In this document: positions 53-54,659 of the stretch, in pieces
How the letters are laid out: each line of letters opens with the position of its first letter
Position numbering within the stretch: the stretch's first letter is position 1
From: an uncultured virus (IMG/VR IMGVR_UViG_3300031975_000839)
Taxonomy: Duplodnaviria > Heunggongvirae > Uroviricota > Caudoviricetes
IMG/VR virus record: IMGVR_UViG_3300031975_000839
DNA: 64,000 nucleotides
Reading direction: 5' to 3' (one strand)
The notes under the pieces: generated by a model
Seen by the model: the letters and a program-made list of their open reading frames with translations, nothing else
Told to the model about the DNA's origin: nothing
The model's database searches: none
Position numbers and translations under genes: made by a program

Positions 53-1200
53 GTTGCACTCGGATTTGGTCTATAATCACACATAATATGTGATGGATAC
101 AAACCACCTTGTTTATTTCTAATGTTAACTTTAAAAATATAAAGTTTAGTTATGATTTCTATATCTATTCTTTTTGCAGAGCCTGGCTTTGGATATAAAA
201 CTTTTACACTTTTAACTTTTGCAGAATCCATCATTCTTCTTCTAGTCATCTCATAATATTCAATTTTTTTACCTTTTTTGTGAACCATGTGATAACCATA
301 TCCTATTCCAGTAACAAGTATTTGTAGTAAAGCTCTCATATTAACTTTTCTAGTTACATCAACAATTATTTTTGGTGATTTCCTAGATGCAGTTTTTTTA
401 TCATATCCCTCAAAAATTTCTATAAACCTTTTTTCTTCAATACCAAACATACCAAGAATTTGTTTTGCTCTTTTATCTTTAAATTTACCAGCTTTAAACT
501 GATCTTCTGTGAAAATAGTTGCAACCCCAGCATTGAAAAATGTAACAGTTCCACCATACTTAAGTGAAAGGAAATAAGGTTTACCATCTCCAAGAACTGT
601 CACATCTGTTATATATCTTCCTATTTGTAGTTCTCTACCTTTAATTAACGCACCAATATCTGTAAAAACTAAAGGCCTTCTAGTGTTCGCACCACCCTCT
701 GGTATTACTTGAATAACTTCGTGTTTTGAGAGTATGTCATCGTGCAACTCTTTCATAAATTCTGGATATTTAAAATTTGGAGAATCTTCACCCTCTGCTA
801 TGTAAGTTTCAATATCTTGAGTAACTTGCCCTTCAAAACCAAATCCTTTACTTTTAGATCCCCCTCCACCTCTTGAACCATTACCAGCTGCAATTTTTAA
901 ATTATATTTTTTAGATAAAGATGGTAAATTAAAATCATCTGCGACTGAACGCATGACTTTAACTCCACTTTCTTTTGGATTTTTTGATATTGCAATAGGA
1001 TCATTAACACCAGATTTTTTTACAATATCACTAAAAAGACCTTTTAGGTTTTCTTTATTATGTGGAGTATCTAATTCATCAATCTCTTGTGTAGATTTTG
1101 GAATTATATCATAAGCTTCAGTAAATGACTGAATTTTATTTAATGGTGAAGTATATGATTCTTTCTTTGGTCGTGTAAGTTGTCTTACAAACTTTCTCAT
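49..1200 (-). CDS. Hypothetical protein, possible PD-(D/E)xK restriction-endonuclease fold
   Basis: 383-aa ORF with GGAG RBS and late promoter; motifs GFGFE...ITDVTV...FLSLK resemble PD-(D/E)xK nucleases. Confidence 0.5.
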   Translation of the reverse strand: MRKFVRQLTRPKKESYTSPLNKIQSFTEAYDIIPKSTQEIDELDTPHNKENLKGLFSDIVKKSGVNDPIAISKNPKESGVKVMRSVADDFNLPSLSKKYNLKIAAGNGSRGGGGSKSKGFGFEGQVTQDIETYIAEGEDSPNFKYPEFMKELHDDILSKHEVIQVIPEGGANTRRPLVFTDIGALIKGRELQIGRYITDVTVLGDGKPYFLSLKYGGTVTFFNAGVATIFTEDQFKAGKFKDKRAKQILGMFGIEEKRFIEIFEGYDKKTASRKSPKIIVDVTRKVNMRALLQILVTGIGYGYHMVHKKGKKIEYYEMTRRRMMDSAKVKSVKVLYPKPGSAKRIDIEIITKLYIFKVNIRNKQGGLYPSHIMCDYRPNPSAT

Positions 1201-1226
1201 TCAATGCTCCCATATGTTTAATCTTA

Positions 1227-4139: not shown

Positions 4140-4719
4140 AGTGTAAGTATGTACCCATAAAATATTTTGGTGTTTCTATTGGTTTTGTTCCACGATGAAG
4201 CCATGGCCACGCTGGTGGAAAAATAACCATGCTACCTTTTTTACAATTTGTAGTTGTTTTTTGATAACTAAACTCTGTTTTACCCTCTTTATTATCAGAC
4301 AAATAAACAAACATTGCAAGAAATCTTCTCATATTTTTAAAACTACGAACATCAACATGCCACCCAAACTCGTCCTCACCATTAGGTAAATATCTTTTCA
4401 TTTTAAATGGCTCAAACCCATGCTTCTTTGGAAAAGCATAATCAGAAAATTCAAGCTTATATTCATTTACATATTTTGTAAAAATGTTTGCAAGTTGATT
4501 AATTTCATCTTTCCATGTATTCATGTATTTCCAAAAATGTAATTCATCAAACAACATACCACCTCTACTATATGAACCATCATCTTCTTTTTTTACATCT
4601 TTAGTGTTCACTCTTTCATGCTGTTCTGAATTAGATTCAAACTTTTCAATTAATTCATCACAAAACTTTAAGTCTATTGCGTTTTCATAAACACGAATAA
4701 ATGTTTCATTATTATTCAT
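4129..4719 (-). CDS. 2OG-Fe(II) oxygenase (prolyl-hydroxylase-like)
   Basis: WHVD...YLSD...GKTEF...FPPAWPWLHRG...KY. Confidence 0.85.
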   Translation of the reverse strand: MNNNETFIRVYENAIDLKFCDELIEKFESNSEQHERVNTKDVKKEDDGSYSRGGMLFDELHFWKYMNTWKDEINQLANIFTKYVNEYKLEFSDYAFPKKHGFEPFKMKRYLPNGEDEFGWHVDVRSFKNMRRFLAMFVYLSDNKEGKTEFSYQKTTTNCKKGSMVIFPPAWPWLHRGTKPIETPKYFMGTYLHYVE

Positions 4720-5690
4720 TTTAAAAATTCTTCTAAACTACCAACTTCTTTAGATGCAGACTTTCCTATAAGTCTTTCTGATTTACCAGCTGCACCCATA
4801 GTCGCTAATCTGTTATCACAATATGCAGTAGTTGTATATCGTGTTCCATTACCTTTGATGCTTGTCACTCCATGAACCTCATTAGAATCTGCTATAATTA
4901 CAGAATTATCTGGTGCGTCAATGGCAACACCATATCTTGGGAAACAAAGATATGCACCATCATAATCACCATCTCTAAAACAATTCATAGTAGTAAGCCC
5001 TGCGTCTAAATCTCCACTATCAACATGGGCAGACATTGCTTTAGACTGTCCAATGTGATATCTATTTGCAGAGAAAGTGGTAAACATACCAAGTCTATGC
5101 TCAGGTTTGACAAATGTTTCAATCCATGTTTTTTGTCGTTCATAAACTTCTGGTATTCCTTTTTTAAATGCTACCTCATTCCATTTTGATATTTCTTTAA
5201 ATCTTTCCCATTTTTCAGGATTGTCTTTACACCAACCAGAGGAATCAATTTTACCAGTAAATCTTCCTCTTTTATATCCAATCATAACTGAACTGATTTC
5301 ATTACAATATGCAATTCTACCCCAATCACCAGATTTTGTTTTAACAAAGTAAGAATTTGGTGTTCTGAGTTTATAATCAATACCCTCTTTTAAACCTTTT
5401 GCTTCCATTTCCTCTTTTATAATTGGCCCAGCACAGTTTGCTCTCATAACAGAAACATCTGAAATACTTTTTAACATTTCTTTTATAGAGTCGTCTGGAT
5501 ACACATTAGTCACTACAACAGCTAAAGGAACATACCCACCATCAACAGTTTTAAAAGGTTTGTATATTCTTACATCTTCATCTTTTACAGTGACTACTTC
5601 GTCAAAAGAGTTATCATCAAGAAACTTACCATTCCATTTTTGATAAGTTTCTTTTTTTCCTAAATCTTTTTTTGTTATGTGTTCATGCAT
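4716..5690 (-). CDS. TET/JBP-family 2OG-Fe(II) dioxygenase (putative 5-methylpyrimidine hydroxylase)
   Basis: FTTFSAN...SAHVDSGD...GAYLCFPRYGVA...EVHGVT...RYTTTAY matches the HxD...H...R pattern of phage TET/JBP enzymes. Confidence 0.8.
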   Translation of the reverse strand: MHEHITKKDLGKKETYQKWNGKFLDDNSFDEVVTVKDEDVRIYKPFKTVDGGYVPLAVVVTNVYPDDSIKEMLKSISDVSVMRANCAGPIIKEEMEAKGLKEGIDYKLRTPNSYFVKTKSGDWGRIAYCNEISSVMIGYKRGRFTGKIDSSGWCKDNPEKWERFKEISKWNEVAFKKGIPEVYERQKTWIETFVKPEHRLGMFTTFSANRYHIGQSKAMSAHVDSGDLDAGLTTMNCFRDGDYDGAYLCFPRYGVAIDAPDNSVIIADSNEVHGVTSIKGNGTRYTTTAYCDNRLATMGAAGKSERLIGKSASKEVGSLEEFLK

Positions 5691-14276: not shown

Positions 14277-14804
14277 TGTAAACCCTTGATTTTCTTGATA
14301 TTTTTCTGCTCGTTTTTTAACCTTTTTAAGTCTTTTTAGAGCCATATTGAGTTTTAAATTGCTTACTTTTTGTGTAAAATCTGTGCCTTCCATATGGTCA
14401 TATTCATGCTGGAATACTCTACACTCTAAACCAAACATTGCTTTTTTGTGCAATTCACCTTTTTCATCTTCATAAGAAACTTCAATTCCATCAGGTCTAC
14501 TTACCTTTAACCACAAGCCTGGATAGGATAAACACCCCTCGTCCATTACAGTTTTTTTGTTTGATACTGATAATATCTTTGGATTAAAGCACGCAATAAT
14601 TTCTCTTTCTTTTACATTTGAGTACATTACAAATACTCTTTCCATAAAACCAATTTGATTTGCAGATAATCCAATCCCTTGAAAATTTTTCATACTATCA
14701 ATCAAATCCTCTTTGATTTTATCTCTATCAATTTCATCACTACATTTTTCAATTGGTATTTTTAGCATTGGGTGTGTTGATTCTATTAATTTGTATACTG
14801 ACAT
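14265..14804 (-). CDS. def: Peptide deformylase
   Basis: GIGLSANQIG, EGCLS, QHEYDH motifs. Confidence 0.95.
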   Translation of the reverse strand: MSVYKLIESTHPMLKIPIEKCSDEIDRDKIKEDLIDSMKNFQGIGLSANQIGFMERVFVMYSNVKEREIIACFNPKILSVSNKKTVMDEGCLSYPGLWLKVSRPDGIEVSYEDEKGELHKKAMFGLECRVFQHEYDHMEGTDFTQKVSNLKLNMALKRLKKVKKRAEKYQENQGFTVSP

Positions 14805-16258
14805 TATTTCATAAACTCCTCTAATGGTGATGTTACTTTAATTCTTACACTTGCAATTTCATAATATTTCTTTTCTTTTTCAATTCCTATAAAATCAAAA
14901 CTTTCATCTTTTGCAGCCATACCAGTTGAGCCACTTCCCATAAATGGGTCTAATACTGTACCACCTTTTGGTGTTACAAGTCTGCAAAGATATTTCATCA
15001 ATTTAATAGGTTTTACTGTTGGGTGTATATTTTTCCTCTCTGTTACAAATCTATCAGTAACATCATTATCTATTTTAGAATCTTTCATATCATGTGCATT
15101 TCTACGACCAGGCATACTTGATGCTTTCTTTATTGGTAAATTATCCAATCCTTGATCTCTTTCCGACTTTGATGCTTTTGCACAATAGAAGTATCTTGAT
15201 GCATCTCCACTATCCTCATATTCTATTGTATATTGTAAAGATTTCATTCCAGAATTATTATTTGTCCAAACTTTATCATCTTTTCTAGGTTGTCGGTTTA
15301 CTGCTTTTCTTTTTACATTCCGAGTCTGACCAAAACTTAATTTGTCAATACCTATATTTTCTTTAGATTGTTTGCCTTGGTCACGAAAATCTGGATTAGT
15401 ATCTGGATATTTTGCTTTACCCTTTGTGCCAGTTTTTGGGAATATGTCTTTCATAACATCACTACCATCGTGAATTACATTTGCTGGGAATCTACCATCT
15501 TTAGTTCTTTCTTTTATTTCTTCTGGTGTAATTTTTCTTATTTTGAATGTGTTAGTATCTTGATAACCTTTTCCACCGCCACCAGTTTTATGCCACCCAC
15601 TTCTGTCATTTTCATTTGCATATTCAACTCTACACTCATCAATATTAATACCACCAGTTCCATGTTTCAATACATTATCTGCAACAGTCTTTTCTGATAT
15701 TGGTTTTCTTGCCATTACGATTGGTTCATGTGCAGGCTTAAGGTGTGTTCCCCAACCATCCCAATTTCTACCATCTCCAGTTGCAAAATCATATTCTTTT
15801 GTTTTTGTAGTTCTATAAAAAGTGTCAATATCGTTTCTAGTATTACCTTCAATTTTTTCTCTTTTTACACCATGCATTTCAGAAGAGCTATCTTTTGTTC
15901 CATGACGAACACCTCTATGAATTTTATCTATATTTTTTCCAATATTCATACTCTTTGGAAATCCACTTCCATAAATCCACATAATCTGATCTCTGATTTC
16001 AAAACCAGCATCTTCTATTGCAACGGCCATTCTATGGTAAGTTCTACTTCCAGAAAATGCAAGAAGATGTCCGCCAGGTTTCAATAATTGAAATGCAAGT
16101 TCCCATGTTTCTTTCTGGAACGCTATTCCTGTTGAATCCCAACCCTTACCCATGAATCCAAGTTCGTAAGGTGGATCTGTAACAACGGAATCTACCTGAA
16201 CACCATCATCAATAAGTTTTTTCATTTCTTGAATACAATCACCATTAAGTAATAACAT
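14804..16258 (-). CDS. Beta-class N6-adenine/N4-cytosine DNA methyltransferase
   Basis: N-terminal TDPPY, C-terminal HPTVKP...LDPFMGSGSTG. Confidence 0.9.
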   Translation of the reverse strand: MLLLNGDCIQEMKKLIDDGVQVDSVVTDPPYELGFMGKGWDSTGIAFQKETWELAFQLLKPGGHLLAFSGSRTYHRMAVAIEDAGFEIRDQIMWIYGSGFPKSMNIGKNIDKIHRGVRHGTKDSSSEMHGVKREKIEGNTRNDIDTFYRTTKTKEYDFATGDGRNWDGWGTHLKPAHEPIVMARKPISEKTVADNVLKHGTGGINIDECRVEYANENDRSGWHKTGGGGKGYQDTNTFKIRKITPEEIKERTKDGRFPANVIHDGSDVMKDIFPKTGTKGKAKYPDTNPDFRDQGKQSKENIGIDKLSFGQTRNVKRKAVNRQPRKDDKVWTNNNSGMKSLQYTIEYEDSGDASRYFYCAKASKSERDQGLDNLPIKKASSMPGRRNAHDMKDSKIDNDVTDRFVTERKNIHPTVKPIKLMKYLCRLVTPKGGTVLDPFMGSGSTGMAAKDESFDFIGIEKEKKYYEIASVRIKVTSPLEEFMK

Positions 16259-17954
16259 GACTAAAATTCCTCACTTTCTCAAATTTAATTGTGCTTCTAA
16301 ATTTATCAACTAATGTATCTTGTTTATGACTAATTACAAATACATTCTCATCTTCAAGAGTGTTTAATATTTTAAGGAACTCATCTGTTCCAGCACCATC
16401 AAGTGAACTATCAAATATTTCATCAAGTATAAGTAAATTAGTATTAACACTATTTTTCATCTTTGCAATTGCTCTCCATGTGAATAGAAGTGCAAGGTCA
16501 ATTCTCATTTTCTCACCCTCACTAAATGATGCATAATTAAACTCATCTCTATGCCTTGACTTAATAGTTTCAGTAAAGTTTTCATCTAATGTAAAGTTTA
16601 CATAAAAATCCATAGAGTTAAGATACTTGTTGATTAATTTATTCATTATAGGTAGATACTGCTTAATTACTTTTGTTTTAATGCCAGTATCTTGTAGTAT
16701 AGCACGAGCTGCATCAGAATATGATTTTTCTTCTTTTAGAGATTTTCTTTGCACCTCTATTGAATCTGAATTATTTTTAAGTTCAGTTAATTTTTCTATA
16801 TCACTATCACTCACACTATTTGTATTAAATGAATCAATCTCTACTTGTAACTTAACATTAAATTTTTCTAGTTGATTTATTGATGCATTTAACTCTGCAA
16901 GTTTTACTTGGTTTTTTCTAATTGTTTCACTTGCATTTACTATTTCAGAAAATCTAGTTTCCAACTTATTATTTTCTATTTCAAGTTTATCTAATCCATC
17001 TTTTAATTTATCTATGGCTTCTTTTTTTTCTTTAATCATTTTTTCTTTAAATGATTTTTCAATCTCTTGCTTACAAGTAGGACACTCAGTATACTTTTCA
17101 AAAAACTTCATTGTCTTACTGTGTGTTTTATGTTTTTCTTTTATTGTTGTCTGATAGTTTTGCAACTCTGTTTTTTTTGTTTCAATATCACTTTTATCAG
17201 ATATACTTTTTAATAGATTATCACTTTCAGTAGTAACTTTATTTCTCTCATTTGTTTTATTTGTTATTTCTTTTTTATTTGTATTAATTGAGTTTGTTTT
17301 TTGTTCTATAATCTTATCTTTATTTTTCTTTAAATCATCAATATGATTTTCTTGTAAATTAATTTTTTCTGTAATTAAATTAAAATTATAATCTACTTCT
17401 TTTATTTCATCTTGCAATGTTTTAATATTTTGTTTAAGCAATAAATTCATAATAGAAAAAATTTGTATATCAAGTATTTCTTCAACAACTTCTCTACGAT
17501 GTGTTGACTTCAGTTGCATAAATGGAACAAAAGTAGAACTACCAAGTATAACTACTTGTGTAAATGAACGATAATTAAGTTTGAGTATTTGTTGCTCTAA
17601 TATTTTTTGATAATCACGAACACTAGCTTCTTGGTTTAGCATATTATCATTTAAATAAATTTCAAACTTATTTGGTTTGATACCTCGTATCACTTTGTAG
17701 TTTTTACTTGCAATACTAAACTCAATCTCAACCATAGTTGAGCCACCATTAATTGAATTAACAAGTTGACTTTTACTAATGACACGAAATGGTTTTCCAA
17801 ACAAACCAAAACATAGTGCATCAAGAATTGTAGACTTACCAGCACCATTTTCACCTATAATGAGTGTAGTAGGATTTCTATTTAATTGTATCTCTGTAAA
17901 ATTATTTCCAGTTGACAGAAAGTTTTTCCATCTCACACTTTTAAAATTTATCAT
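16245..17954 (-). CDS. gp46: Recombination exonuclease ATPase subunit (Rad50/SbcC-like)
   Basis: GENGAGKST, CPTC zinc hook, FSEGEK, LILDEIFDSSLD. Confidence 0.95.
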   Translation of the reverse strand: MINFKSVRWKNFLSTGNNFTEIQLNRNPTTLIIGENGAGKSTILDALCFGLFGKPFRVISKSQLVNSINGGSTMVEIEFSIASKNYKVIRGIKPNKFEIYLNDNMLNQEASVRDYQKILEQQILKLNYRSFTQVVILGSSTFVPFMQLKSTHRREVVEEILDIQIFSIMNLLLKQNIKTLQDEIKEVDYNFNLITEKINLQENHIDDLKKNKDKIIEQKTNSINTNKKEITNKTNERNKVTTESDNLLKSISDKSDIETKKTELQNYQTTIKEKHKTHSKTMKFFEKYTECPTCKQEIEKSFKEKMIKEKKEAIDKLKDGLDKLEIENNKLETRFSEIVNASETIRKNQVKLAELNASINQLEKFNVKLQVEIDSFNTNSVSDSDIEKLTELKNNSDSIEVQRKSLKEEKSYSDAARAILQDTGIKTKVIKQYLPIMNKLINKYLNSMDFYVNFTLDENFTETIKSRHRDEFNYASFSEGEKMRIDLALLFTWRAIAKMKNSVNTNLLILDEIFDSSLDGAGTDEFLKILNTLEDENVFVISHKQDTLVDKFRSTIKFEKVRNFSHVIT

Positions 17955-18754
17955 ATAAATTCTTCCAATGTTGCAGTTCCATATTTTTCTGATACTTTGT
18001 TTATATTACTAGAATTATGTTGTTTAATATTACCATCTATGAAAGGTATATTATTTGTAAATGTGTATTCTGTTTCGCCAGGTTTTTTTATTTTCCATTG
18101 TAAGTCTTTATCTTTTGGATAATTTATTGTCCATTCCATAGTAGAGTTTTTTAAATACTTTTTAGATTTTTTGTTTATTGGATAAATGTATCTAAACTGT
18201 TTACCCCATACTCTAGTAAAACCTAACTCACCCATTTTTTTATCATTTGGTCTTGGGCCATACTTTGTATCATCTCTACCCATTTCTTTTTTCATTTTTC
18301 TTTGAATAGTCCTAAAGTGAACTTTTTCTCCACTTTCACTTAAATATATGTCTGTCCAAATAAACCCACCATATAAAAAATTAGCAGCTTGATAAACATA
18401 ACCAGGCTTTCCTACAATTCCATCTGCCCATGTGTAAAGATATTTTATTTCTGGTGTGTTTTCTTTTATCCACTTAATAGTTAAACTCTGCATTTGTGAT
18501 TCACTATTTCGTGGCATTTTTTCGTCCATACACATTTTACCTATTTCATAATAATCTGATGTGGTTAAATCTGGAAACATTTTACGAATAGTTCCCATAG
18601 GATTAGTTCCCCACCCTAATGTTAATACACCAACAAGTTCATCATTAACATATGCACCAAGATAGTGTTTAGTTAACTTTGGCATAACTGCACTATAATG
18701 TCTTTGTTGAACAAAGAGTGTTGCAACTCTCCAATCCACTTTTTTAATTATCAA
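17951..18754 (-). CDS. Mom-like (GNAT-fold) DNA modification protein
   Basis: QRHYS...VGVLTLG...EIGKMC...RNSES...TWADG...GYVYQAANFLY resembles the Mu Mom family. Confidence 0.7.
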   Translation of the reverse strand: MIIKKVDWRVATLFVQQRHYSAVMPKLTKHYLGAYVNDELVGVLTLGWGTNPMGTIRKMFPDLTTSDYYEIGKMCMDEKMPRNSESQMQSLTIKWIKENTPEIKYLYTWADGIVGKPGYVYQAANFLYGGFIWTDIYLSESGEKVHFRTIQRKMKKEMGRDDTKYGPRPNDKKMGELGFTRVWGKQFRYIYPINKKSKKYLKNSTMEWTINYPKDKDLQWKIKKPGETEYTFTNNIPFIDGNIKQHNSSNINKVSEKYGTATLEEFI

Positions 18755-25210: not shown

Positions 25211-25789
25211 TTATATTGTTACTATTTCATATATTTTATATTGAAAATTTACCTCTACAGTTAAATACTCTACATCAGTAGCAGCTTGTGTATAACTTAA
25301 TCCACCTAAAGATGTTGGAAAAATATCTTGAAAACGAACTTCTACTAGTGGATTATTTTTATTGGATAATATTGTAAGTGTTGCATCACCATACATTCCT
25401 CTATCTGGTGTTGCTGGTTGTGTATCTCCAATATCATTACTTGTTCCTAAAGTTGCTTGTGGACTGTTTGAAGTTGAGGATCTAAAAGTTGCAAATTGTG
25501 TTCTACTTTTAGGAAAACCAGTTCCAGTAATCCAATCATGTATTGTTATATAATTTTCTAAAAACTCATCTACAATAAAAGATATTGTTAAATCTTCATA
25601 GTCTGGCTTATCACCTAGTGTTGGAATATTTTTAAATGGTGTATTGTAAGTTGCAGCTGGTAAACTAACGCCAGGCAAATTTGCAGCTGTAGTAAAAAAC
25701 TCAACTTTAGGAAGTTGATTAATACTAAACTTAAATTGAGTTGGTGAAGAATAGTCTAGTTTAGTTGGTTGTCTTGATATTGATGTCAT
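25211..25789 (-). CDS. gp3: Tail completion/tube terminator protein
   Basis: SPTQFKF...PKVEFF...ANLPG...FIVDEFLENY...DATL.ILS...FPTSL; likely start MTSISRQP. Confidence 0.85.
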   Translation of the reverse strand: MTSISRQPTKLDYSSPTQFKFSINQLPKVEFFTTAANLPGVSLPAATYNTPFKNIPTLGDKPDYEDLTISFIVDEFLENYITIHDWITGTGFPKSRTQFATFRSSTSNSPQATLGTSNDIGDTQPATPDRGMYGDATLTILSNKNNPLVEVRFQDIFPTSLGGLSYTQAATDVEYLTVEVNFQYKIYEIVTI

Positions 25790-34653: not shown

Positions 34654-34661
34654 TATAAATA
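34654..34661 (+). promoter_or_regulatory. Late promoter TATAAATA (plus strand, divergent)
   Basis: Exact motif directly before the plus-strand zinc-finger ORF. Confidence 0.6.
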
Positions 34662-34666
34662 TGGTT

Positions 34667-34951
34667 ATGAAAACACATTATGAAAAATATAAATCAACAA
34701 TTAAAAAAGTTGCAAGACGACACAGATTGTTAAAAGATAAATGGATAACAGATTATCTTATGACTAATTCTTGCTATGTCTGTGGTGAATCTGAACTTAT
34801 ATGCTTACAATTTTATCCTGACGATAGAAAAATAAGAGCATTATCTAAAAAGTCTAATGATAAAAAAGATGTAATTAAGTATATAGAAAAAAATAAAATT
34901 GTATGTAGAAATTGCTTTCAAAAATTAGATTCAGATATAATTACCAGTTAG
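34667..34951 (+). CDS. Degenerate HNH-like zinc-finger protein
   Basis: CYVCGE...LQFY...IVCRNCF; the only plausible plus-strand gene; start 34661 or 34667. Confidence 0.6.
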   Translation: MKTHYEKYKSTIKKVARRHRLLKDKWITDYLMTNSCYVCGESELICLQFYPDDRKIRALSKKSNDKKDVIKYIEKNKIVCRNCFQKLDSDIITS

Positions 34952-45459: not shown

Positions 45460-45470
45460 TTAATTACTCC

Positions 45471-45920
45471 TTAACCTACATCGTCAAGTAGAGCGGCAAC
45501 TACACAATTAACTGTTCCTGTTGACGAAATTGCATGAATATCATCAACTGTCGCATTTGGTAATCTACCATACCAAGTTTGTGATGGGCCGACTAAAAAT
45601 GCATCTCCAGTTGTGCTTGCAGCAGTTCCACCATCAACAACAATGTAAACACTTGCAGTAGAACTTTGATTTTGCACAAGTAAAAAATTTACTTTATCAC
45701 CAGCTGCGATTGCTGTTGTTGCAGTATCATCATCAACTGCTGTGTAGTCAATATAATCTCCAGCCATTAAATTTGTGCTAGAGTTTGATACACTTGTTAA
45801 TTTGTAATACCACTTATCATTCGCATCAGCAGGTGATACTGATAATGTGCCTGATATAATTTTTTGTATCTCGTCTGGTAAGACACTTGCAGATACTGTT
45901 ACTGTAGCGTCATCAGCCAT
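45471..45920 (-). CDS. Hypothetical virion protein
   Basis: 149-aa ORF with GGAG RBS; late promoter at 45948-45955. Confidence 0.55.
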   Translation of the reverse strand: MADDATVTVSASVLPDEIQKIISGTLSVSPADANDKWYYKLTSVSNSSTNLMAGDYIDYTAVDDDTATTAIAAGDKVNFLLVQNQSSTASVYIVVDGGTAASTTGDAFLVGPSQTWYGRLPNATVDDIHAISSTGTVNCVVAALLDDVG

Positions 45921-45947
45921 GTTTTTCTCCTATCCTATTTTTAATTC

Positions 45948-45955
45948 TATTTATA
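45948..45955 (-). promoter_or_regulatory. Late promoter TATAAATA
   Basis: Exact motif. Confidence 0.7.
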
Positions 45956-45959
45956 ATTC

Positions 45960-47096
45960 TTATCCTAATGCTATTGCAAGAGCAGTTGCTTCATCTCCAA
46001 TATCACTTGTCAATGCAACTGTGCCAGTTGAAGTTGGAAGTGTTAGTGTGCCTGTATTTGATATTGAAGAAATTATAGGACTTGTTAATGTTTTATTTGT
46101 AAGTGTTTGTGATACATCTGTTCCAACTAATGTTGTAGTTGCAGCTGGTAGTGTTATTGTTTTGTTACCATCAAATTCTGAGTGAGCAGGTGCTTGTATT
46201 TCAGCGTAATGTGCATTTGCACTCTCACAATAAAATCTTACAACTGATTGAGCTCCACTATTTTTAACATTAATAACACCTGATTCAATCTCTACACCAT
46301 TACTACCATCAACTTGAAAAACACCAGTTCCATCTAACGCAACTGCAACATTACCATTAGCTGCATCTGTAATTGTGATTGAGCTAGAGTTTGTTCCTGA
46401 ATTTGTATTAAGAGTTAAATCACCAGTTCCATTTGTTGTGATTGTTGCATTTGCATTACTATCACCAACAATTACTGTGTCTGCACTTAATGATACATCA
46501 CCATTTCCGTTTGGTGTAATTGATATATTTCCATCTGCACCATCAGGTATAACTATAGAACCAGAGTTTGTTCCTGAATTTGTATTAAGAGTTAAATCAC
46601 CAGTTCCATTTGTTGTAATAGTAACATCTTCGTTACTACTTCCTAACTGAACTGTATCTGTTTGTAATGTAACATTACCAGTTCCATTTGGAATAATATC
46701 TATGTCTGCGTCTGATGTAGATACAATATCATTTCCATTAATATCTAAATCACCACCTAATTGTGGAGTAGTATCACCTACTACATCTGTAGTAACTGTT
46801 CCATCAGATGTGACTACTATTGTTCCAGTTGAATTTGGAAGTGATATAGTTCTATCAGCAGTTGGATCTACAACTGTTAGAGTAGTTTCAAATGCGTCAT
46901 CAGTTGCACCCTCAAAAACAATTTTACCATCTTCTAAAATATTTAATGTTACAACATCACTACTTGTTGTAACAGTAGAAGTAAAAGTTTGTGTTCCAGA
47001 TTCTAATCCACCAACATCAGTAACAAGATTATTAAATTGTAATCTAAACTGTTCTAGTGTGCTTGAGGTTGTAATTTCTGATGCTGTTATTGCCAT
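45960..47096 (-). CDS. Fibre/whisker-like structural protein with PNGTG repeats
   Basis: TLEQFR..FN N-terminus, TPQLGGDLD, internal tandem repeats, ALAIALG C-terminus. Confidence 0.6.
   Translation of the reverse strand: MAITASEITTSSTLEQFRLQFNNLVTDVGGLESGTQTFTSTVTTSSDVVTLNILEDGKIVFEGATDDAFETTLTVVDPTADRTISLPNSTGTIVVTSDGTVTTDVVGDTTPQLGGDLDINGNDIVSTSDADIDIIPNGTGNVTLQTDTVQLGSSNEDVTITTNGTGDLTLNTNSGTNSGSIVIPDGADGNISITPNGNGDVSLSADTVIVGDSNANATITTNGTGDLTLNTNSGTNSSSITITDAANGNVAVALDGTGVFQVDGSNGVEIESGVINVKNSGAQSVVRFYCESANAHYAEIQAPAHSEFDGNKTITLPAATTTLVGTDVSQTLTNKTLTSPIISSISNTGTLTLPTSTGTVALTSDIGDEATALAIALG
46386..46616. repeat. Exact 54-bp direct repeat (46386-46439 and 46563-46616), 177-bp period, inside a fibre gene
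   Basis: agagtttgttcctgaatttgtattaagagttaaatcaccagttccatttgttgt occurs twice. Confidence 0.85.
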
Positions 47097-47323
47097 TAGT
47101 TTTTATCCAGTAAAGTTTTTAACATTGATTTAATTTCGTGCATTTCACATTTAATGTTATTTATCTCTCTTGATGCGTTTCTTATTTCATCTCTTTGTCT
47201 TTGTGCATCAGCAGCTCTTCTTTTTGCCATCTGATACGCAGTTTTATCAGTATTAACAATTGCGTTAGTTTTTGTATCTCTAACTAAATTACTATAACCT
47301 TCAACTTTTAAATATTCACTCAT
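47096..47323 (-). CDS. Conserved small coiled-coil protein following VrlC-like genes
   Basis: MSEYLKVEG.SNLVRD..TNAIVN. Confidence 0.65.
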   Translation of the reverse strand: MSEYLKVEGYSNLVRDTKTNAIVNTDKTAYQMAKRRAADAQRQRDEIRNASREINNIKCEMHEIKSMLKTLLDKN

Positions 47324-47324
47324 A

Positions 47325-50300
47325 CTATGTTGCCAATGCAATTGCTCTTAAATCTTTAATTCTTGGTGGATTAGCTGCATCTGTTCCTTGCATAACAATC
47401 TTAATTTGAAAAGATATGAACTCATCAAGTGCATCACCAATACCATCATCTTTAATCCCAGCAGAGAATGAATACTCTTGGAAATCATCCTTACCTAAAG
47501 AATTTGGTGGAACTGTGTCTGCAAGTCCAGTATCATTAAAGAATGTATATCCTAATTCATCAAGACTAGATGTATCATCAGTTCTTAATATTTTGAACAA
47601 TACTTTTATCTCCGAAGTATTTACTTTATTTGCAGAGAAAAACACTCTTAATGCAGTAGCAGGATTTTCTAGCTGAACTGATTTTGTTATATAAATTGCA
47701 GAATTATTATCACCATCAGGCTCGGTAGACGGAGCATAATCTGAGGTAGGATAAACATCTGATGAACTATCTATGTTATCTAATCTATTTGCAACTAAAA
47801 CAGTAGATGCTCTATCTAAATCAATTACTGGTGAAACATTAGAGTTTGTAGTATTAAGTGTAAGTATAGTTTCTAGCGACTTAACCGAACTCATTTCATT
47901 TGCCTCATTAATATTTGATGCAACCATTTTACTTATATCATGTTCAAAGTTTTCACCAATCGGTACAAAAGTATTAGTAGTTTCTTTTGTAAATGAAGTT
48001 TCTGTTCCAGATGGACTTGTTGCAGTTGTTCCTTTTATAGCTGCAGTTATAACAGTATCCTCAACTTCCATAGTATTTAAAACAGTTTTAGTAAGCTCAT
48101 ATCTATAATTTTCAGATGCATAAACATTTATTCCACCGACTTCTGTATCAGTAGATGCACCAGTTACTGATGCAGATGTTGATAATGCAATTGTATATGA
48201 ATCCATCTGTATGTTTGCAATAGCAGTATGAGTTTTATTAATCTCTGTAAGTGGAACACTATTAATCATATATAACTCAATTGTTGCATCATCTGAGTGT
48301 GCAACAGCTGTTGAGCCACCTTGCCCTCTGGTAATACTTGATAATGTTGTTCCAGATATTGTTCCAGACATTATTTCGTTACTAATTTTAATATGAACTG
48401 TTCCTGAACTTGGAAAATTAGTTGATGATGTTAGAGTTAAAGTTGTTGCAGTATCAGTTATTGCACCATCTAATGTTGTTGATATTCCAGATGTAACACC
48501 AGTAATTGTTACATTATTAGATGTGCTGTACATTCCATGATCTCTATGCTTTACTTTTGCAACAGCAGAACTATTAGTTAAAATAATTGGATTTGAAAGT
48601 AATCTTGCACCATAAACAGTTGAACCAATTTCATTTGTAACTGCCTGTCCAATAATATCATTTTGTAATGTGACTGTTCCAGGCGTTGTTGAGAAATTAG
48701 CTGCATGTAAAGTAAACTTCATGTCTTGAGATTGAACTGCATCCCAAGTTGTATTATTCTGTGATTTAAACAATGAACCTAAATGTGGTTGTGTTGATAT
48801 TAAACGATTAGAGCCAGACACATCTTTTTCACCCATTTGTGCAATCCACAATTTGTAATCTAAACTATTTGACATTACAACAAAACAATATTCTGTTCCC
48901 TCTTGTATATAAACTGGAGAATCAAAAGTAAATGTGGTTACAGCAAGTCCATTGTCTGGATCTAAAGTAACATCTGATGGCTCTAAAACTTTTCTACCAA
49001 ATGGTAACAGTTTAGGGCCTGGATAACCATTGATAACATTTCTTACTTCTACCCAAACTGGTAAATCGTTATCTTTTTCAGAGAAAAATAAATCTAGTTT
49101 TGTTAAGAAAGAGCCACCTCTTTTATATGTGATAAATGTTTGTGCAAGTGGATCACCACCTTTATTGTGTACAACAATAAATTCATCATGCTCTTTCATT
49201 TTAACCATGTAAGTATGATTACCAGTTAAAACAAAGTTATATAATTGTAAATCTCTTTTATCTTCTAGGTACTCTATGGAAGTAACTTCAATAGTTTTAT
49301 CTCCCTCACCAATTAACATATCACCAATTTCTAAAGTTTTTAACTCTATTTTATTTCTATCTAAAACACCTTTATGAATAATTTTAGACTTTTCAGCATT
49401 TGGTGCTTTCCACCCATCTGTTGTTAAAAACATATGGTCTTCAGATGCATCATATCCACCATTATTTAAACTTACCATTCTTAAAGGAGTTTCTATTGCA
49501 ATATCGTCATCACCTAAAAGTGGCCTATGGAATTGTAAAACTTCATTAATCATTCCATCTTGTCCAACAAGTTTATCACCTATTTCTACATCCTCAATAT
49601 TCTTTTCAATTCCACCCTCTAGTAAAACTTTTGTTTCACCTCTAAAGCATCTATTATGAACTAGCCAACCATTTGCATAATATGTTTTATCCCCATCAAG
49701 AGAAAAATTGTAAACTGGTGTATCACTATCAACATCTTTTGTTTGAATAGAATTAACAACCACAGAATTACCATCGTGAGTTACAATTTCATCACCAAGT
49801 TTAAACTCCGTTGTATTAAGTTCTTTATACCATGGCTTATCATTTGCCATTTCTGGATTAACAACTTTCCACCCATTGTTTGTCATTATAGGGTGGTCTT
49901 CTGTAAAGAAAAATTCACCATCATTAATAGATACTAATTTTCTTCCATCAGCAATTGCATGCTGTAAATGTATTACTGTATTATAAGAACCTTTTGAATT
50001 TAAAACTCTATCACCAACAACAATATGTTCAATATCTTTATAATCACCATTTTCAAGTAACACTTTTGTTCCAGCAATAAAACAAATTGATGCAGGCCTA
50101 TTTTCTCTAATTGTACTTGTTGATGTAAATTTACTTGTTGTTTGGTTTACTGATGTTTGAACAACTCTCGCATTTCTAGTTGAGATAATTGTTTCTTGCT
50201 CAGTTTCTATTACACCCTTTGCAGTATATATTTCTTGTCCGGCTGTTAAAGGTAGTGTTGACCTATCGTCAGTTGAGCTTGATGTTAATCTAAATTCTAC

Positions 50301-53300
50301 ATCACCTGATTTAAATTTAGGCACAGCTTGTTGCCCTGCAAATCTATATTCTGGTATTCTAAATGTAAACTCTACTTTACCAGCACCATTTGTAACTAAT
50401 GCACTACCCTCAACTGGATTATTACTATCAGAAAATTCTGATGAAGATGGAGTAATGAACTGACTAACAGCTGTTCTATCAAAGTATGCATAAAGTCTAG
50501 TTCCTGGCCTAAAACATTCACCAGTTATAGTAATAGTTCTTGGGCGAACAAATGGAATTAATGCTCTTGATATAATTCTTTTACCTTGAGATTCATGCTC
50601 AACATGTTCAACAACTGATGTTCTTACACCAGTTCTTTTTAAATCTGTTCTTGATGTTGTAGTCGTTCTAGTGCCTGATCGCACACTTGGAACTTGTTGA
50701 CCCCAACGACCAGTTGTTGTAGTTCTTACACTTGTTCTTTCAGTTTTTGTGCTAACAACACCAGACCATTGTGTTTCCCAATTGTTCCAAACTGTTCCTA
50801 AAGCTCCAGAGTTTTTTAGTGCATTTTTAACGCTGTCAAAGTTACCCTCACGATTAATTATAAGTGCTGGTGCTTCTTCGGTTTCAAACCATTCATCACC
50901 ACTTGGTGATAGTGTTATTTTACCAACCCATTCTTGTATCAAATAAGTTTGAACATTTTCAACTCTTGTTGCATACGGCTGTTTAATTAATTCCTCATGC
51001 GTGTAAGGTAAAGTCAATAAATCACCAGTTTTTTGATAACCAGCAGATGCTCTTGCAGTGTCTGTAGTTGCAAGCTCAGTAAGTGAAGAATTTCTCATTA
51101 CACAAATTGGACGAGCTTCATTCTCCTCCATATCAATTGCAATTTTATAATCCTTATTTAAAGTATCACCAACTTTATGCCCAGAAAAATTATCTACAAT
51201 GAAACCAGATTTAAATCTGTCTAATCCATTTGCATCTTGAATCTGGAATGATTCTGCATCTCTTTCTAATAAATTAAGTGCAGTATAAAATTCTAAATTT
51301 TCTATTCTTTCTTGTAATCTACCAATATCTCTCATGGTAAATCTTTGTGTTTTATACCTTTGTATTTTCATTCCATTTGCAACTTCTGTAAATGCTGGAA
51401 TGTAAATAGTTGCAAGTTTCATTGCATTGTCTATATCTTTTGGCTCTGTTGGATCTTCAGCAGATACACCCTCTACTACTTTAAATTCACCATCTGGTAG
51501 TAAAAATACTGATGCAAATTTATTAAGAAAAAATTCAAAATCATTTGTCATTGCAGCACCAGGCTGTGGTGTATCAACGACAACTGCACCAGTTGAATCA
51601 AATGTTCTATTTGTGTGATTAAATGAATTTCCTGTGATTTCATCAACTGCTGTAATTACAGTTGACGCACCAGTTACATTTGAAACAGTAGGCCTAAAGT
51701 CTACACTATTTCTAAGTTCAAATGAACCTGATGGCTCTGGATCGTCTGGGTCAATTTTTGTCGCACTATAGTCTGGTATATCTGCATAATTCATTTGCCC
51801 AGAAACAGAGGAATAAGAATCAACAGAGAAAAAGTCTCCAGCACCATGCTCAAAAAAGTCATAAACAATTAACAGTCTACCTCTTGGAGCTGCAACGCCA
51901 GGTTTTCTAACTAATCTTGAAATATCGTAATAAGTATCTCTTTGTCCATTGTCTAATGTAAAGTTACTTGTAATCACTTTACTACCAGCAGTAACACCAC
52001 CAGTATCAATTGTTGCAGTTGCACCTGAGTGAACACCAGTAATTGTTTCACCAGCAATGAAATCAGTCGCACCAAATCCACCAATTAAAACATATTGCAA
52101 TGGACTTGCAGTTGTGATTAATCTACCTTTAGCACCAGATGTTCCACCAGTAATTCTTTCACCTCTTTCAAATACACCAGTTGCAGAAGATATAGTAAGT
52201 GTTGGTGCAGTTGCGTCTGTAGAAGTATCCTCTGAATCAAATACTGCATTGAGTCTGAATACATCTGCACGGCCAAAAGAAATAGTTTTATCTGCTGGCC
52301 TTGTTCCAAATGCATCTGTAGCACCAGTAGTAACTTTCAATTGCTTCATCAATTGAGTAGTTTTAATCTTTGGTTGCTGTGCAGATTTTGTAAGTGTTGC
52401 TAAAACTTTAACTTTTGCACCAGATCCAAATACAGTATTATCTGTAATTGTAAGTGTTTGTGTTCCAGTTCCAGAAGTATTACCACTTGCAGAAACTATA
52501 TCACCAGCTGCACCACTACCAGTTCCAGCTGTAATAATTGAAACAAGGTAATCTTTTTCTGCAAAAGTAACAAATGTTTCATTTGTTCCAGCACTTAAAG
52601 TTACAACACCAGATGCGTTTGATGTTGCGACAAATTGTGTTCTTGCATTAAATGATGTATCACTTGCACCACTGTTTGATTCTGTTTTAAGTGTCTTAAT
52701 TGGTTCTTTAGGTAATTTGAATACTGCAATAGATTTTTCTGAATCTCTTACTTTAGCTTCTTCTTGAACTTCTAGTCCAACTGCAAAACCTTGAGCATCT
52801 GTATTACCTGTTTCAAAAACTATACGATCAACTGGGTCAGCATCATTATTAAATCCACCACCTCTAAACACTGCATCATCATCTGTTCTTTCTAAAAGAA
52901 TGTCAGCTGAAAAGTTTGTAGTAGTTGAACCACCTTGTATTTGTCTTGCTTCTCTTAATTGATTTGTTTCTATGGAAACAATTGTTAAATCTGTATCAGT
53001 AGCATCTTCTACAATTAAATCTGTTTCAGATGAATCTGATGCTTTGATTTTTTCTCCAGCTGAAAATTTACCTACAACTTGAGTTAATATAACTTTATCT
53101 CCAGATGTTCCAGTTGGGAATACAAATCCTGTCGCACCAGAAGTGTTGCCTGTAACTTGAACACCACCATTAGAATGATTTGCAAGTAAAGTTGCACTTG
53201 GAGTTCCAGACATTGTTAATGTCGTAAACATTTGAGTATCAAATACTGACAACTTATAAACTGATTCTGTATTTGAACTTGTTGCGCCTGGAGTTTGTCC

Positions 53301-54659
53301 TTGCTCAAATTCCATGAAACGAGCTCGTGTGACACCAATTTGCCTACCAGCACTAGAACCTCTAGTTGTTGTTCTTTCTGTAAATAAGCCTATTTGACTA
53401 TAGGGTGTTGTTTCACCTGAAATATTAGATATATCTGGAGTACCAAATACATTTGTAAGTCTAAGTGTATTACCAACTTCTAAGTTTGTAACACCAGCAT
53501 TAATTGTTTGAAAATCTCTTGCTTTATCTATGTCTATGAGTTTTGTTGCAATTTGCTCAACTTCGTAACCTTTTACATATGCTTTTCCTGGCGATACTGA
53601 AAGTGTAAATAAAGATTCTGACGCAGTATTACCATCATTAGTTGTTGCACCAGCAGTATAAGTTCCAGTAAAATCTTGCCCCTTAACTGTTGTGTCAACA
53701 CTTTCTTTTGCATCAAAAATAAAAGGAACTACTGTATAATCTCCAGATTCATCAAATGTTCTTCTTGCAAGAGTATCACCTAAAACTGAATATTCAGTTG
53801 CTTGAACATGAGAAACTATAACTCCGTTATCTATTCTCATTAACTCTATAAAATTTGTATCAGCGGTAGAGTCAAAGTCTAACTTTGAAAGTGTTAATGA
53901 TACTTTTAATCTATGAGCTCCTTTAGCTGCATAGTTTGATGAGCCAGTTGCATTGTCTGTAAGAGTTGCATCTATCTCTGGTGTAATAAGTTCCTCTGTA
54001 ACTGTAAAACCAATTCTTGCAGTTTCTGTTGTTGAATTAACACTCAATGGTAAAGTTTGCTCTGCACATTGTACAAACTGCCCTCGTATAAAATAAATTC
54101 CTTTGTCTACTTTTACTGATGAACCAGTCTGTGATGCGTTAGATGAAAAAGTTGTTCCAGATGCAACACCAGAACCATATGTCGTTGTGTGTGTTACACT
54201 TGCATCAGCAGTAATATTTTCACTATTTGAAAAGACTCCAGAAGTTAAATCTGTTCCAGTCTGTATATAATAGATGTATAAAATTGGTTGTGTTGTAGTA
54301 GTTGCAGCTTGAAATCCAATTACCTTTGCTTTAACACCAGAAGTTACGCCTGTAATTATTACTGGTGTAGTTGCATTATAAAATGATTCTGGTTTAATTG
54401 TTTCACCAGCAAATGTTGACTCTAATTGTAATGTATCAAATCTATCAGAGTAGGATACTTGGCCAGGTATGACCATTGCACCCTCTTTAAACATATGATT
54501 ACCATGTCTTTCAACTTGATTTTGAAGTATGGATTGAAGTTGTGTTAATTCTCTTGCCTGAACTGCATATCCAGGCCTAAAAAGAATACGATGAAATAAA
54601 TCGTCTTGGTCAAAATCGTCATAATAAGGTACTACATTTAAATCGGTAATTTGTGGCAT
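47325..54659 (-). CDS. VrlC/DUF4815-like large virion structural protein containing two tandem Hint domains
   Basis: PYYDDF...FRPG.AVQARELTQLQSILQNQ, ARRTFDESGDY, DRFKSGFIVDNF, DPLAQTF. Confidence 0.85.
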   Translation of the reverse strand: MPQITDLNVVPYYDDFDQDDLFHRILFRPGYAVQARELTQLQSILQNQVERHGNHMFKEGAMVIPGQVSYSDRFDTLQLESTFAGETIKPESFYNATTPVIITGVTSGVKAKVIGFQAATTTTQPILYIYYIQTGTDLTSGVFSNSENITADASVTHTTTYGSGVASGTTFSSNASQTGSSVKVDKGIYFIRGQFVQCAEQTLPLSVNSTTETARIGFTVTEELITPEIDATLTDNATGSSNYAAKGAHRLKVSLTLSKLDFDSTADTNFIELMRIDNGVIVSHVQATEYSVLGDTLARRTFDESGDYTVVPFIFDAKESVDTTVKGQDFTGTYTAGATTNDGNTASESLFTLSVSPGKAYVKGYEVEQIATKLIDIDKARDFQTINAGVTNLEVGNTLRLTNVFGTPDISNISGETTPYSQIGLFTERTTTRGSSAGRQIGVTRARFMEFEQGQTPGATSSNTESVYKLSVFDTQMFTTLTMSGTPSATLLANHSNGGVQVTGNTSGATGFVFPTGTSGDKVILTQVVGKFSAGEKIKASDSSETDLIVEDATDTDLTIVSIETNQLREARQIQGGSTTTNFSADILLERTDDDAVFRGGGFNNDADPVDRIVFETGNTDAQGFAVGLEVQEEAKVRDSEKSIAVFKLPKEPIKTLKTESNSGASDTSFNARTQFVATSNASGVVTLSAGTNETFVTFAEKDYLVSIITAGTGSGAAGDIVSASGNTSGTGTQTLTITDNTVFGSGAKVKVLATLTKSAQQPKIKTTQLMKQLKVTTGATDAFGTRPADKTISFGRADVFRLNAVFDSEDTSTDATAPTLTISSATGVFERGERITGGTSGAKGRLITTASPLQYVLIGGFGATDFIAGETITGVHSGATATIDTGGVTAGSKVITSNFTLDNGQRDTYYDISRLVRKPGVAAPRGRLLIVYDFFEHGAGDFFSVDSYSSVSGQMNYADIPDYSATKIDPDDPEPSGSFELRNSVDFRPTVSNVTGASTVITAVDEITGNSFNHTNRTFDSTGAVVVDTPQPGAAMTNDFEFFLNKFASVFLLPDGEFKVVEGVSAEDPTEPKDIDNAMKLATIYIPAFTEVANGMKIQRYKTQRFTMRDIGRLQERIENLEFYTALNLLERDAESFQIQDANGLDRFKSGFIVDNFSGHKVGDTLNKDYKIAIDMEENEARPICVMRNSSLTELATTDTARASAGYQKTGDLLTLPYTHEELIKQPYATRVENVQTYLIQEWVGKITLSPSGDEWFETEEAPALIINREGNFDSVKNALKNSGALGTVWNNWETQWSGVVSTKTERTSVRTTTTGRWGQQVPSVRSGTRTTTTSRTDLKRTGVRTSVVEHVEHESQGKRIISRALIPFVRPRTITITGECFRPGTRLYAYFDRTAVSQFITPSSSEFSDSNNPVEGSALVTNGAGKVEFTFRIPEYRFAGQQAVPKFKSGDVEFRLTSSSTDDRSTLPLTAGQEIYTAKGVIETEQETIISTRNARVVQTSVNQTTSKFTSTSTIRENRPASICFIAGTKVLLENGDYKDIEHIVVGDRVLNSKGSYNTVIHLQHAIADGRKLVSINDGEFFFTEDHPIMTNNGWKVVNPEMANDKPWYKELNTTEFKLGDEIVTHDGNSVVVNSIQTKDVDSDTPVYNFSLDGDKTYYANGWLVHNRCFRGETKVLLEGGIEKNIEDVEIGDKLVGQDGMINEVLQFHRPLLGDDDIAIETPLRMVSLNNGGYDASEDHMFLTTDGWKAPNAEKSKIIHKGVLDRNKIELKTLEIGDMLIGEGDKTIEVTSIEYLEDKRDLQLYNFVLTGNHTYMVKMKEHDEFIVVHNKGGDPLAQTFITYKRGGSFLTKLDLFFSEKDNDLPVWVEVRNVINGYPGPKLLPFGRKVLEPSDVTLDPDNGLAVTTFTFDSPVYIQEGTEYCFVVMSNSLDYKLWIAQMGEKDVSGSNRLISTQPHLGSLFKSQNNTTWDAVQSQDMKFTLHAANFSTTPGTVTLQNDIIGQAVTNEIGSTVYGARLLSNPIILTNSSAVAKVKHRDHGMYSTSNNVTITGVTSGISTTLDGAITDTATTLTLTSSTNFPSSGTVHIKISNEIMSGTISGTTLSSITRGQGGSTAVAHSDDATIELYMINSVPLTEINKTHTAIANIQMDSYTIALSTSASVTGASTDTEVGGINVYASENYRYELTKTVLNTMEVEDTVITAAIKGTTATSPSGTETSFTKETTNTFVPIGENFEHDISKMVASNINEANEMSSVKSLETILTLNTTNSNVSPVIDLDRASTVLVANRLDNIDSSSDVYPTSDYAPSTEPDGDNNSAIYITKSVQLENPATALRVFFSANKVNTSEIKVLFKILRTDDTSSLDELGYTFFNDTGLADTVPPNSLGKDDFQEYSFSAGIKDDGIGDALDEFISFQIKIVMQGTDAANPPRIKDLRAIALAT
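49164..49649 (-). mobile_element. Hint (intein-like) domain 2, 162 aa, no homing endonuclease
   Basis: CFRGETKV...ASEDHMF...LYNFVL...IVVHN, followed by Lys. Confidence 0.85.
49653..50084 (-). mobile_element. Hint (intein-like) domain 1, 144 aa, no homing endonuclease
   Basis: CFIAGTKV...FTEDHP...VYNFSL...NGWLVHN, followed by Arg. Confidence 0.85.

Follow-up and report, generated by a model that had tools for sequence, protein, structure and literature searches.

In a 64,000-nucleotide stretch of DNA from an uncultured virus (IMG/VR record IMGVR_UViG_3300031975_000839; the whole stretch is called the window below), the word CCWGG (W, A or T) survives only where a G precedes it or a C follows it, GGWCC is missing altogether, and CCGG is strongly depleted. 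This observation is real and lies far beyond chance. Among relatives of the virus, the word statistics are strictly associated with the genes of a C5-cytosine methyltransferase and a TET-like dioxygenase, and the context that spares a word is GCC, not any GpC. The explanation favoured here, which as a whole is judged probable, is that phage enzymes modify the DNA at GCC and that the genome has been recoded around this modification.

Word counts in the window and in its relatives

The words were counted exhaustively in the window, with a k-mer scan in addition, and compared with a null of 500 synonymous-codon shuffles within genes; 58 open reading frames (ORFs) of at least 100 amino acids were annotated. 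An earlier note, made by reading the sequence by eye, had claimed that all of about 29 CCWGG sites read GCCWGG or CCWGGC, and the exhaustive count returns 29 of 29: 15 with a 5' G only, 11 with a 3' C only and three with both. These sites start at positions 182, 2241, 8362, 11264, 12078, 12984, 14518, 15108, 16074, 18078, 18402, 23488, 25671, 31007, 32952, 33822, 34551, 35863, 43941, 44148, 48679, 49018, 50503, 51559, 51898, 53287, 53587, 54463 and 54571; the site at 25671..25675 (acgCCAGGcaa), for example, has GpC on both sides. Twelve of the 13 example coordinates in the earlier note fall within one base of a real site, while the one given as 2180 is actually 2241. The total of 29 is set against a null mean of 31.9, but GpC-flanked sites number 29 against 6.6 (standard deviation 2.1), and the unflanked form HCCWGGD (H, any base but G; D, any base but C) numbers 0 against 25.3, with 18 in the lowest shuffle. 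Since the total is unchanged, the sites have been recoded rather than lost.

The other two words behave in a similar way. GGWCC is absent (0 against 13.0, lowest shuffle 7), as the earlier note had stated for GGACC and GGTCC, while GGSCC (S, G or C) is found 14 times against 3.1. All 14 GGNCC sites are GGGCC or GGCCC; one of them lies at 5425..5429, and ten of the 14 are recoded Gly-Pro dipeptides (GGC/GGG-CCN). CCGG occurs twice against 13.7, and HCCGGD 0 times against 10.5. The two sites, which had been placed near 50239 and 61550 and described as CCGGC, are indeed there, at 50239..50242 (tgtCCGGctg, CCGGC) and 61550..61553 (ccgCCGGcat, GCCGGC). Counted by flank, neither unflanked CCWGG nor GGWCC thus reaches the frequency of the codon-shuffled null.

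The pattern is also written into codon choice. All 29 CCWGG sites stand in frame as Pro-Gly (CCW-GGN), and no off-frame CCWGG is left in the window. In 18 of them the Gly codon is GGC, which makes up 7.5% of Gly codons, and in the other 11 the preceding codon ends in G. The ten Gly-Pro dipeptides in the 58 ORFs all use GGC (seven) or GGG (three), codons that together account for 12% of Gly codons; here all ten coordinates of the earlier note agree. As GCC is present on one strand only at 26 of the 29 CCWGG sites, one modified strand appears to suffice.

Short palindromes are depleted in the window against the codon-preserving null, which is the usual mark of restriction-site avoidance. Three further palindromes are absent, namely ACGT (0 against 98), TCGA (0 against 69) and CGCG (0 against 10.7), and others are reduced, namely GCGC (4 against 17.8), GATC (59 against 160) and GTAC (51 against 202). 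TGCA is enriched (560 against 393). In the window together with G002, a record of the same lineage described below, both-strand counts are 0 against 43.5 for ACCGT/ACGGT, 0 against 35 for TGATCA, 10 against 59 for GTCTC/GAGAC and 22 against 65 for CATCC/GGATG.

To extend the comparison to relatives, codon-shuffle nulls were applied to six genome sets: the window lineage (133 kb), the related record G004 and Methylophilales phage Melnitz, which carry the methyltransferase, and Pelagibacter phage Mosig, HTVC008M and P-SSM7, in which PF00145 has no match. Mosig and Melnitz are the closest isolates, with 76-80% DNA identity in the capsid gene only. The window lineage includes the window and G002, a record of 60.5 kb that does not overlap the window and is linked to it by way of L052 and L020 (97-99% identity), G002 and L052 being 98.6% identical. 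The nearest record, G001, extends the window by 8.9 kb. In all, about 133-134 kb of the lineage is covered, and roughly 45 kb of the genome lies outside this coverage.

The enzyme-bearing and the methyltransferase-less sets separate completely. Observed over expected counts of HCCWGGD are 0/52.5 in the window lineage, 0/19.4 in G004 and 0/63.8 in Melnitz, against 90/89.5 in Mosig, 112/102.8 in HTVC008M and 142/157.1 in P-SSM7. For GGWCC the corresponding values are 0/41.6, 0/19.6 and 0/60.8 against 79/74.2, 73/69.9 and 105/127.3, and for GGSCC they are 48/14.8, 16/5.3 and 60/24.7 against 0/18.8, 1/16.0 and 3/19.5. G002 on its own contains 30 CCWGG sites, none of them unflanked, and no GGWCC, ACGT or TCGA. 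The dipeptides tell the same story: unprotected Pro-Gly amounts to 0/29 in the window, 0/30 in G002, 0/22 in G004 and 0/66 in Melnitz, against 78/104 in Mosig, 95/112 in HTVC008M and 131/150 in P-SSM7, and Gly-Pro is written with GGS in 10/10, 30/30, 15/15 and 47/47 cases against 0/62, 0/56 and 2/100. The signature is therefore found in four of four methyltransferase-bearing sets and in none of the three relatives without the gene. A wider sample of 39 non-redundant methyltransferase/TET loci (344.5 kb), taken from related IMG/VR contigs, contains 97 CCWGG sites, none of which is unflanked. The same loci hold 20 GGWCC (in six loci) and six HCCGGD (in four loci), so the purge of these two words varies by lineage.

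Several further differences accompany this division. GGTACC and CGTCTC are absent or nearly absent in all three methyltransferase-bearing sets and present in the three relatives without the gene. TGCA is enriched 1.2-1.4 fold over the null in the methyltransferase-bearing genomes only (1164/827, 640/476 and 1182/993, against 595/630, 540/670 and 906/1088). Mosig, HTVC008M and P-SSM7 avoid GGGCC/GGCCC, with 0, 1 and 3 sites against 16-19.5 expected. The idea that this scarcity is a mirror image of the modification system was rejected, the causes being mixed: GGCC is an avoided word in HTVC008M and P-SSM7, and CCC is one in Mosig. In Mosig, GGCC itself stands at 120 against 112, so its avoidance does not explain the scarcity there. 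Melnitz and Mosig have genomes of equal size, and both dipeptides are rarer in Melnitz (Pro-Gly 68 against 109, Gly-Pro 47 against 62); the constraint may therefore reach the amino-acid sequence.

Enzymes of the phage and the protecting context

The dioxygenase is encoded in the window at 4716..5690 on the minus strand, directly after the gp45 clamp gene and with no methyltransferase adjoining. It is a TET/JBP-like Fe(II)/2-oxoglutarate dioxygenase of 324 amino acids, predicted from Pfam, residues and fold to convert 5-methylcytosine (5mC) to 5-hydroxymethylcytosine (5hmC). The Fe(II) triad (H222-x-D224 and H273) and the 2-oxoglutarate-binding arginine R284 are invariant in 11 homologues. According to an AF2 model (predicted local distance difference test score 71.7, predicted template modelling score 0.73), the product has a TET-type fold: the best Foldseek matches are NgTET1 (E 5e-9, template modelling score 0.58 on the target), CMD1, CcTet and TET2, which come before FTO and AlkB. 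The protein is 63% identical to the product of the Melnitz gene that directly follows the Melnitz C5-methylase.

An intact gene for the C5-methyltransferase is found at L052:8650-9846 (193.9 bits against PF00145). This location corresponds to about 9.4-10.6 kb past the high end of the window and about 0.5 kb past the end of G001; L052 is 97.4% identical to the record that extends the window and 98.1% identical to the last 320 bases of the window. The methyltransferase motifs I (FxGxG), IV (SPPC), VI (ENV) and VIII (QxRxR) are invariant in 11 sequences, and, judged by their conserved residues, both enzymes are intact. The closest solved homologue is SpCmoX from cyanophage S-B43 (8YF3; E 4e-79, residues 5-392 aligned), with which the L052 enzyme shares SPPC (S96-C99). 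The position of SpCmoX R350 is occupied by an invariant leucine, Leu372, in 11 aligned TET-linked enzymes. In the related IMG/VR contigs the gene order is DNA polymerase, C5-methyltransferase, TET. The pair is adjacent in 31 of the 39 loci, with a gap of at most 60 bases in 28 and of 61-400 bases in three more; four loci end too early to judge, and the remaining four belong to the window lineage, where the two genes are not parallel neighbours within five genes, the definition of a pair used by Burke et al. P-loop kinases are frequent partners of methyltransferase/TET pairs according to the available text of Burke et al. (2021, PMC8256090). G002 contains a gene for a P-loop kinase-like protein (Zeta_toxin/AAA_33; phrog_12810) at L067:3271-3933, near neither the methyltransferase nor the TET gene.

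The flanks of other words that start with CC point to GCC, and not to any GpC, as the protecting context. In the window lineage, CCTTC preceded by A, C or T occurs 23 times against 133 and preceded by G 28 times against 19; for CCTGC these counts are 19 against 114 and 20 against 11.6. In G004, CCTGA gives 0 against 63 and 10 against 8.1, and CCTGT gives 1 against 55 and 14 against 6.8, while in Melnitz CCTGA gives 6 against 179 and 25 against 26.6. Pooled per genome, CC-starting words stand at 0.08-0.18 of the null with a 5' A, C or T and at 1.3-1.8 with a 5' G. A 5' G does not rescue CA words (CASTG and CATCG in G004, 0 against 23.7) or CGCG (1 against 24.8 in the window lineage and Melnitz), and none of the methyltransferase-bearing sets shows a depletion of GGCC, a word with GCC on each strand. 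CCTCC, the complement of the Shine-Dalgarno sequence, is not rescued by a 5' G in the window lineage either, as expected of a word avoided for other reasons. P-SSM7, without the methyltransferase, purges CCGG at any flank (H 0/155, G 0/23). The claim of the earlier note that sites are purged unless they overlap a cytosine modified by the phage, with an imprint on codon choice, is supported by these results in its conditional form; what does not hold is its extension to GpC in general.

The GCC context agrees with the GpC[C/T] specificity that has been published for methyltransferases linked to TET. In the available text of Burke et al. (2021, PMC8256090), the METHYLTRANSFERASE family of TET-linked phage methyltransferases favours GpC, mostly GpC[C/T], with one clade accepting GpC[C/T/G] but not GpCA and another accepting any GpC; the phage TETs favour C or T as the base that follows the modified one. 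A positive control is provided by cyanophage S-B43. According to the accessible part of the report on this phage (PMC12783734), SpCmoX is a cytosine C5-carboxymethyltransferase acting on the GC motif, and the phage DNA is modified at GC motifs, as established by nanopore sequencing and liquid chromatography-mass spectrometry. In the S-B43 genome, CCGG stands at 8 against 193 and unflanked CCGG at 0 against 147.

Weighing the explanations

According to the favoured explanation, the phage would mark, after replication, the cytosines in G-C-C and possibly also those in G-C-T. The C5-cytosine methyltransferase would make 5mC and the TET-like dioxygenase would convert it, 5hmC rather than 5mC being the presumed end product. 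Because only a small subset of cytosines would be marked, most restriction sites would be unprotectable and would be removed by selection; the words removed in this way would include GGWCC, ACGT, TCGA, GTAC and every CCWGG or CCGG that lacks the flanking G or C. Words that start with CC would be protectable, as a 5' G would make the first C modified on at least one strand. In Pro-Gly (CCW-GGN) and Gly-Pro (GGN-CCN), where the amino-acid sequence leaves no way around the word, the GCC overlap would be obtained through synonymous codon choice, either at the Gly or at the previous residue. The DNA would thus be modified at GCC, and the selecting agents would presumably be host restriction endonucleases.

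A number of findings weigh against this explanation. The C5-methyltransferase was found neither in the window nor in G001, and its presence in the window lineage is deduced from contigs that are 97-98% identical. A search beyond the window for a C5-methyltransferase and glycosyltransferases, proposed in the earlier note, recovered the former in these contigs; of the latter, none is recognisable in Pfam scans of about 134 kb of the window lineage. The methyltransferase and TET genes of this lineage are about 68 kb apart, although they adjoin in most relatives. The match of the TET-like protein to Tet_JBP (PF12851; E 1.8e-6, 27.7 bits) falls under the cut-off of 34.9, and a sequence profile of its homologues found no TET among solved structures. 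Some words that contain GpC are still depleted, namely CGCG and GCGC in the window, ACCTGC (4 against 41.7, both strands) and AGCT, which has GCT on both strands (132 against 369 in Melnitz, 78 against 154 in G004). Consequently, the explanation needs a GCC-limited specificity, which is partly inferred from the very data it explains, and GCT is a doubtful protecting context because AGCT is depleted in Melnitz and G004. A flank test of GCGC, set up to compare GCC with GCT, is confounded, as the class with neither context (which contains CGCG and TGCGCA) is 0 also in methyltransferase-less phages. In S-B43, flanked CCGG is itself below the null (8 against about 46), which amounts to a partial rescue. 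With regard to the host and its restriction enzymes, querying genome contigs with the methyltransferase gave no match, and the capsid-protein query gave only relatives of at most 72% identity on mis-binned contigs of metagenome-assembled genomes, with no host clue. Lastly, unflanked CCWGG is purged throughout the clade while the other avoided words are lineage-dependent, and G004 avoids CASTG, CATCG and GATC just as methyltransferase-less SAR11 phages without CCWGG avoidance do. Both facts are odd if host enzymes alone select.

These last facts are the basis of another explanation, considered improbable here, in which a nuclease carried by the phage itself is the selecting agent: the GCC mark would be a self-mark, and unmarked CCWGG-type sites in host DNA would be destroyed. 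If true, it would account for the missing unflanked CCWGG in every methyltransferase/TET lineage (none among the 97 sites of the 39 loci), whatever other words each lineage avoids. It also suits G004, whose avoided words are shared with SAR11 phages that lack the methyltransferase and stand at the null for CCWGG and GGWCC, and the selection looks absolute, as self-harm would predict. However, the genes common to the window lineage and Melnitz and absent from the three methyltransferase-less relatives include no recognisable restriction endonuclease; they encode the TET, the methyltransferase, a Mom-like protein, an endolysin-like hydrolase, an HNH-like ORF of 96 amino acids and small unknown proteins. 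Moreover, the GGWCC and HCCGGD sites that persist in some loci of the clade look host-dependent, and several distinct words would require several nucleases.

The remaining alternatives concern the modification itself. The close relationship to SpCmoX and the common SPPC motif could mean that the methyltransferase is a carboxymethyltransferase of the CmoX type, in which case the protecting base would be 5-carboxymethylcytosine or its amide and the TET-like protein would have another role. This is very unlikely: all 11 aligned TET-linked enzymes have Leu in place of the defining, carboxyl-binding R350, and the CmoX class was rejected for the L052 enzyme on this ground. In addition, Pfam scans of the 58 window ORFs and 78 ORFs of G002 gave no methyltransferase-fold match other than DNA methyltransferases, and hence no CmoA-like protein (carboxy-S-adenosylmethionine synthase), and the close succession of the methyltransferase and TET genes in most loci is sensible for 5mC. 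Hardly any credence is given to the absence of modification altogether, with the signature produced by longer host recognition words that exclude a 5' G, or by codon-pair or mutational bias. HTVC008M does spare some CC-words with a 5' G in spite of having no methyltransferase (CCGGT, H 5/27 and G 30/17.2), a pattern that results from six-base palindromes such as ACCGGT. Nevertheless, at least five unrelated words (CCWGG, CCGG, CCTTC, CCTGC and CCTGA) are exempted in the same way, depletion extends to all three other 5' bases while the G form rises above the null, off-frame CCWGG is eliminated as fully as in-frame CCWGG, and the homologous proteins of methyltransferase-less relatives show no such bias.

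The phage, known systems and significance

The window comes from a marine T4-like myophage. All 58 annotated ORFs lie on the minus strand, and guanine and cytosine make up 32.6% of the bases. According to Pfam and phrog annotation, the T4-like head and tail genes encode the gp23 capsid, gp20 portal, sheath, tube, terminase and baseplate. Replication and recombination are represented by a gp41-like helicase, gp45 clamp, UvsW, UvsY and gp46/47, and further genes encode a late sigma factor, Hsp20, a CobS-like protein, peptide deformylase and about a dozen 2-oxoglutarate-Fe(II) oxygenases. G002 adds ribonucleotide reductase, gp32, gp59, RNase H, ThyX, polymerase, clamp loader and RegA. Of the sampled words of window positions 44001-54000, 99-100% are present in 17 public metagenome runs from eight studies (seawater, marine and biofilm samples; 2019-2025), so the lineage is widespread; three small runs that carry a coded organism label contain 26-47% of the words of this segment.

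Two other DNA modification genes are located in the window, both on the minus strand. The Mom-like gene at 17951..18754, between the gp46 and gp47 homologues (Pfam Mom 3.2e-49; phrog_1384), is 76% identical to a Melnitz gene, and tblastn found no counterpart in Mosig, HTVC008M, P-SSM7 or the available part of G004. It may represent a second, adenine-directed modification. The gene at 14804..16258 encodes an N6/N4 DNA methyltransferase (Pfam N6_N4_Mtase 6.5e-35; phrog_67) whose match spans residues 22-469 against a profile of 221 positions, which implies that about 230 amino acids are inserted between its two halves. The minus-strand gene at 47325..54659 encodes a structural protein of 2444 amino acids (DUF4815, phrog_358) with Hint/intein-type domains at about residues 1525-1600 and 1669-1832 (Vint, Hint_2, Hom_end_hint and PT-HINT matches), which suggests a virion protein with an intein or two, or else with an autoprocessing module. 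The HNH-like ORF of 96 amino acids mentioned above (34661..34951; weak match to phrog_2255, E 3.7e-6) lies next to the terminase gene and is on the plus strand, which is otherwise empty; it has a homologue in Melnitz and none in the methyltransferase-less relatives.

Restriction-site avoidance is a general phenomenon in phage genomes. The present case resembles it in the depletion of palindromes against a codon-preserving null and in a word set that depends on the lineage, but differs in that the flanking base decides whether a word is avoided and the allowed form is enriched. In T4, every cytosine is replaced via the nucleotide pool by hydroxymethylcytosine or its glucosylated form. The likeness lies in a T4-like phage with C5-modified cytosine directed against nucleases, as far as the available text of a preprint goes (bioRxiv 10.1101/2023.12.21.572611). 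The difference is that here only GCC would be marked, after replication, and the genome sequence must do the remaining work. In the same available text of this preprint on glycosyltransferases, the authors, who also characterised the methyltransferase/TET enzymes, consider broad nuclease protection by GpC-limited post-replicative modification unlikely and leave its function open.

The closest described enzymes are the C5-methyltransferase/TET clusters of Burke et al., which share with the present phage group the two enzyme families, the clustering of polymerase, methyltransferase and TET seen in relatives, and a GpC[C/T] preference, found by experiment, that agrees with the inferred GCC context; in the available text (PMC8256090), redoxin, Hsp, clamp-loader and T4 capsid genes are present on some of the 32 contigs, as they are in this group. 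Unlike those clusters, the window lineage has its pair far apart and no recognised glycosyltransferase or other tailoring gene. That text reports enzyme activities, whereas the feature described here is a genome-wide imprint. The CmoA/CmoX/CmoY system for 5-carboxymethylcytosine in S-B43 (Yang et al. 2025, PMC12783734, in its accessible part; PDB 8YF3) is similar in its SPPC and GC motifs, its T4-like marine phage and its conditional CCGG purge. It differs in having the arginine that is Leu here; in the window lineage neither CmoA nor an amide ligase was found, and a TET partner is present instead. Moreover, S-B43 does not purge CCWGG (341 against 328) or GGWCC (181 against 203).

The enzymes, their GpC preference and restriction-site avoidance were thus known beforehand. 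The new element is that avoidance depends on whether a word overlaps the motif modified by the phage itself. A full-text literature search found no description of this, nor do the available parts of PMC9004378, PMC8256090 and bioRxiv 10.1101/2023.12.21.572611 contain one; the available text of the Melnitz paper (PMC9004378) mentions the methylase only. The pattern provides evolutionary evidence that a GpC-limited modification protects, and in this way answers the doubt expressed in the available text of the preprint (bioRxiv 10.1101/2023.12.21.572611): what makes the protection effective is a genome rewritten to suit the modification, with unprotectable sites deleted and unavoidable ones recoded onto GCC. 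It also offers a read-out, from sequence alone, of the context of a modification enzyme and of the words attacked by hosts, both of which normally have to be obtained by experiment. As Melnitz can be grown on its cultured OM43 host (strain H5P1), modified cytosine at GCC is a directly testable prediction.

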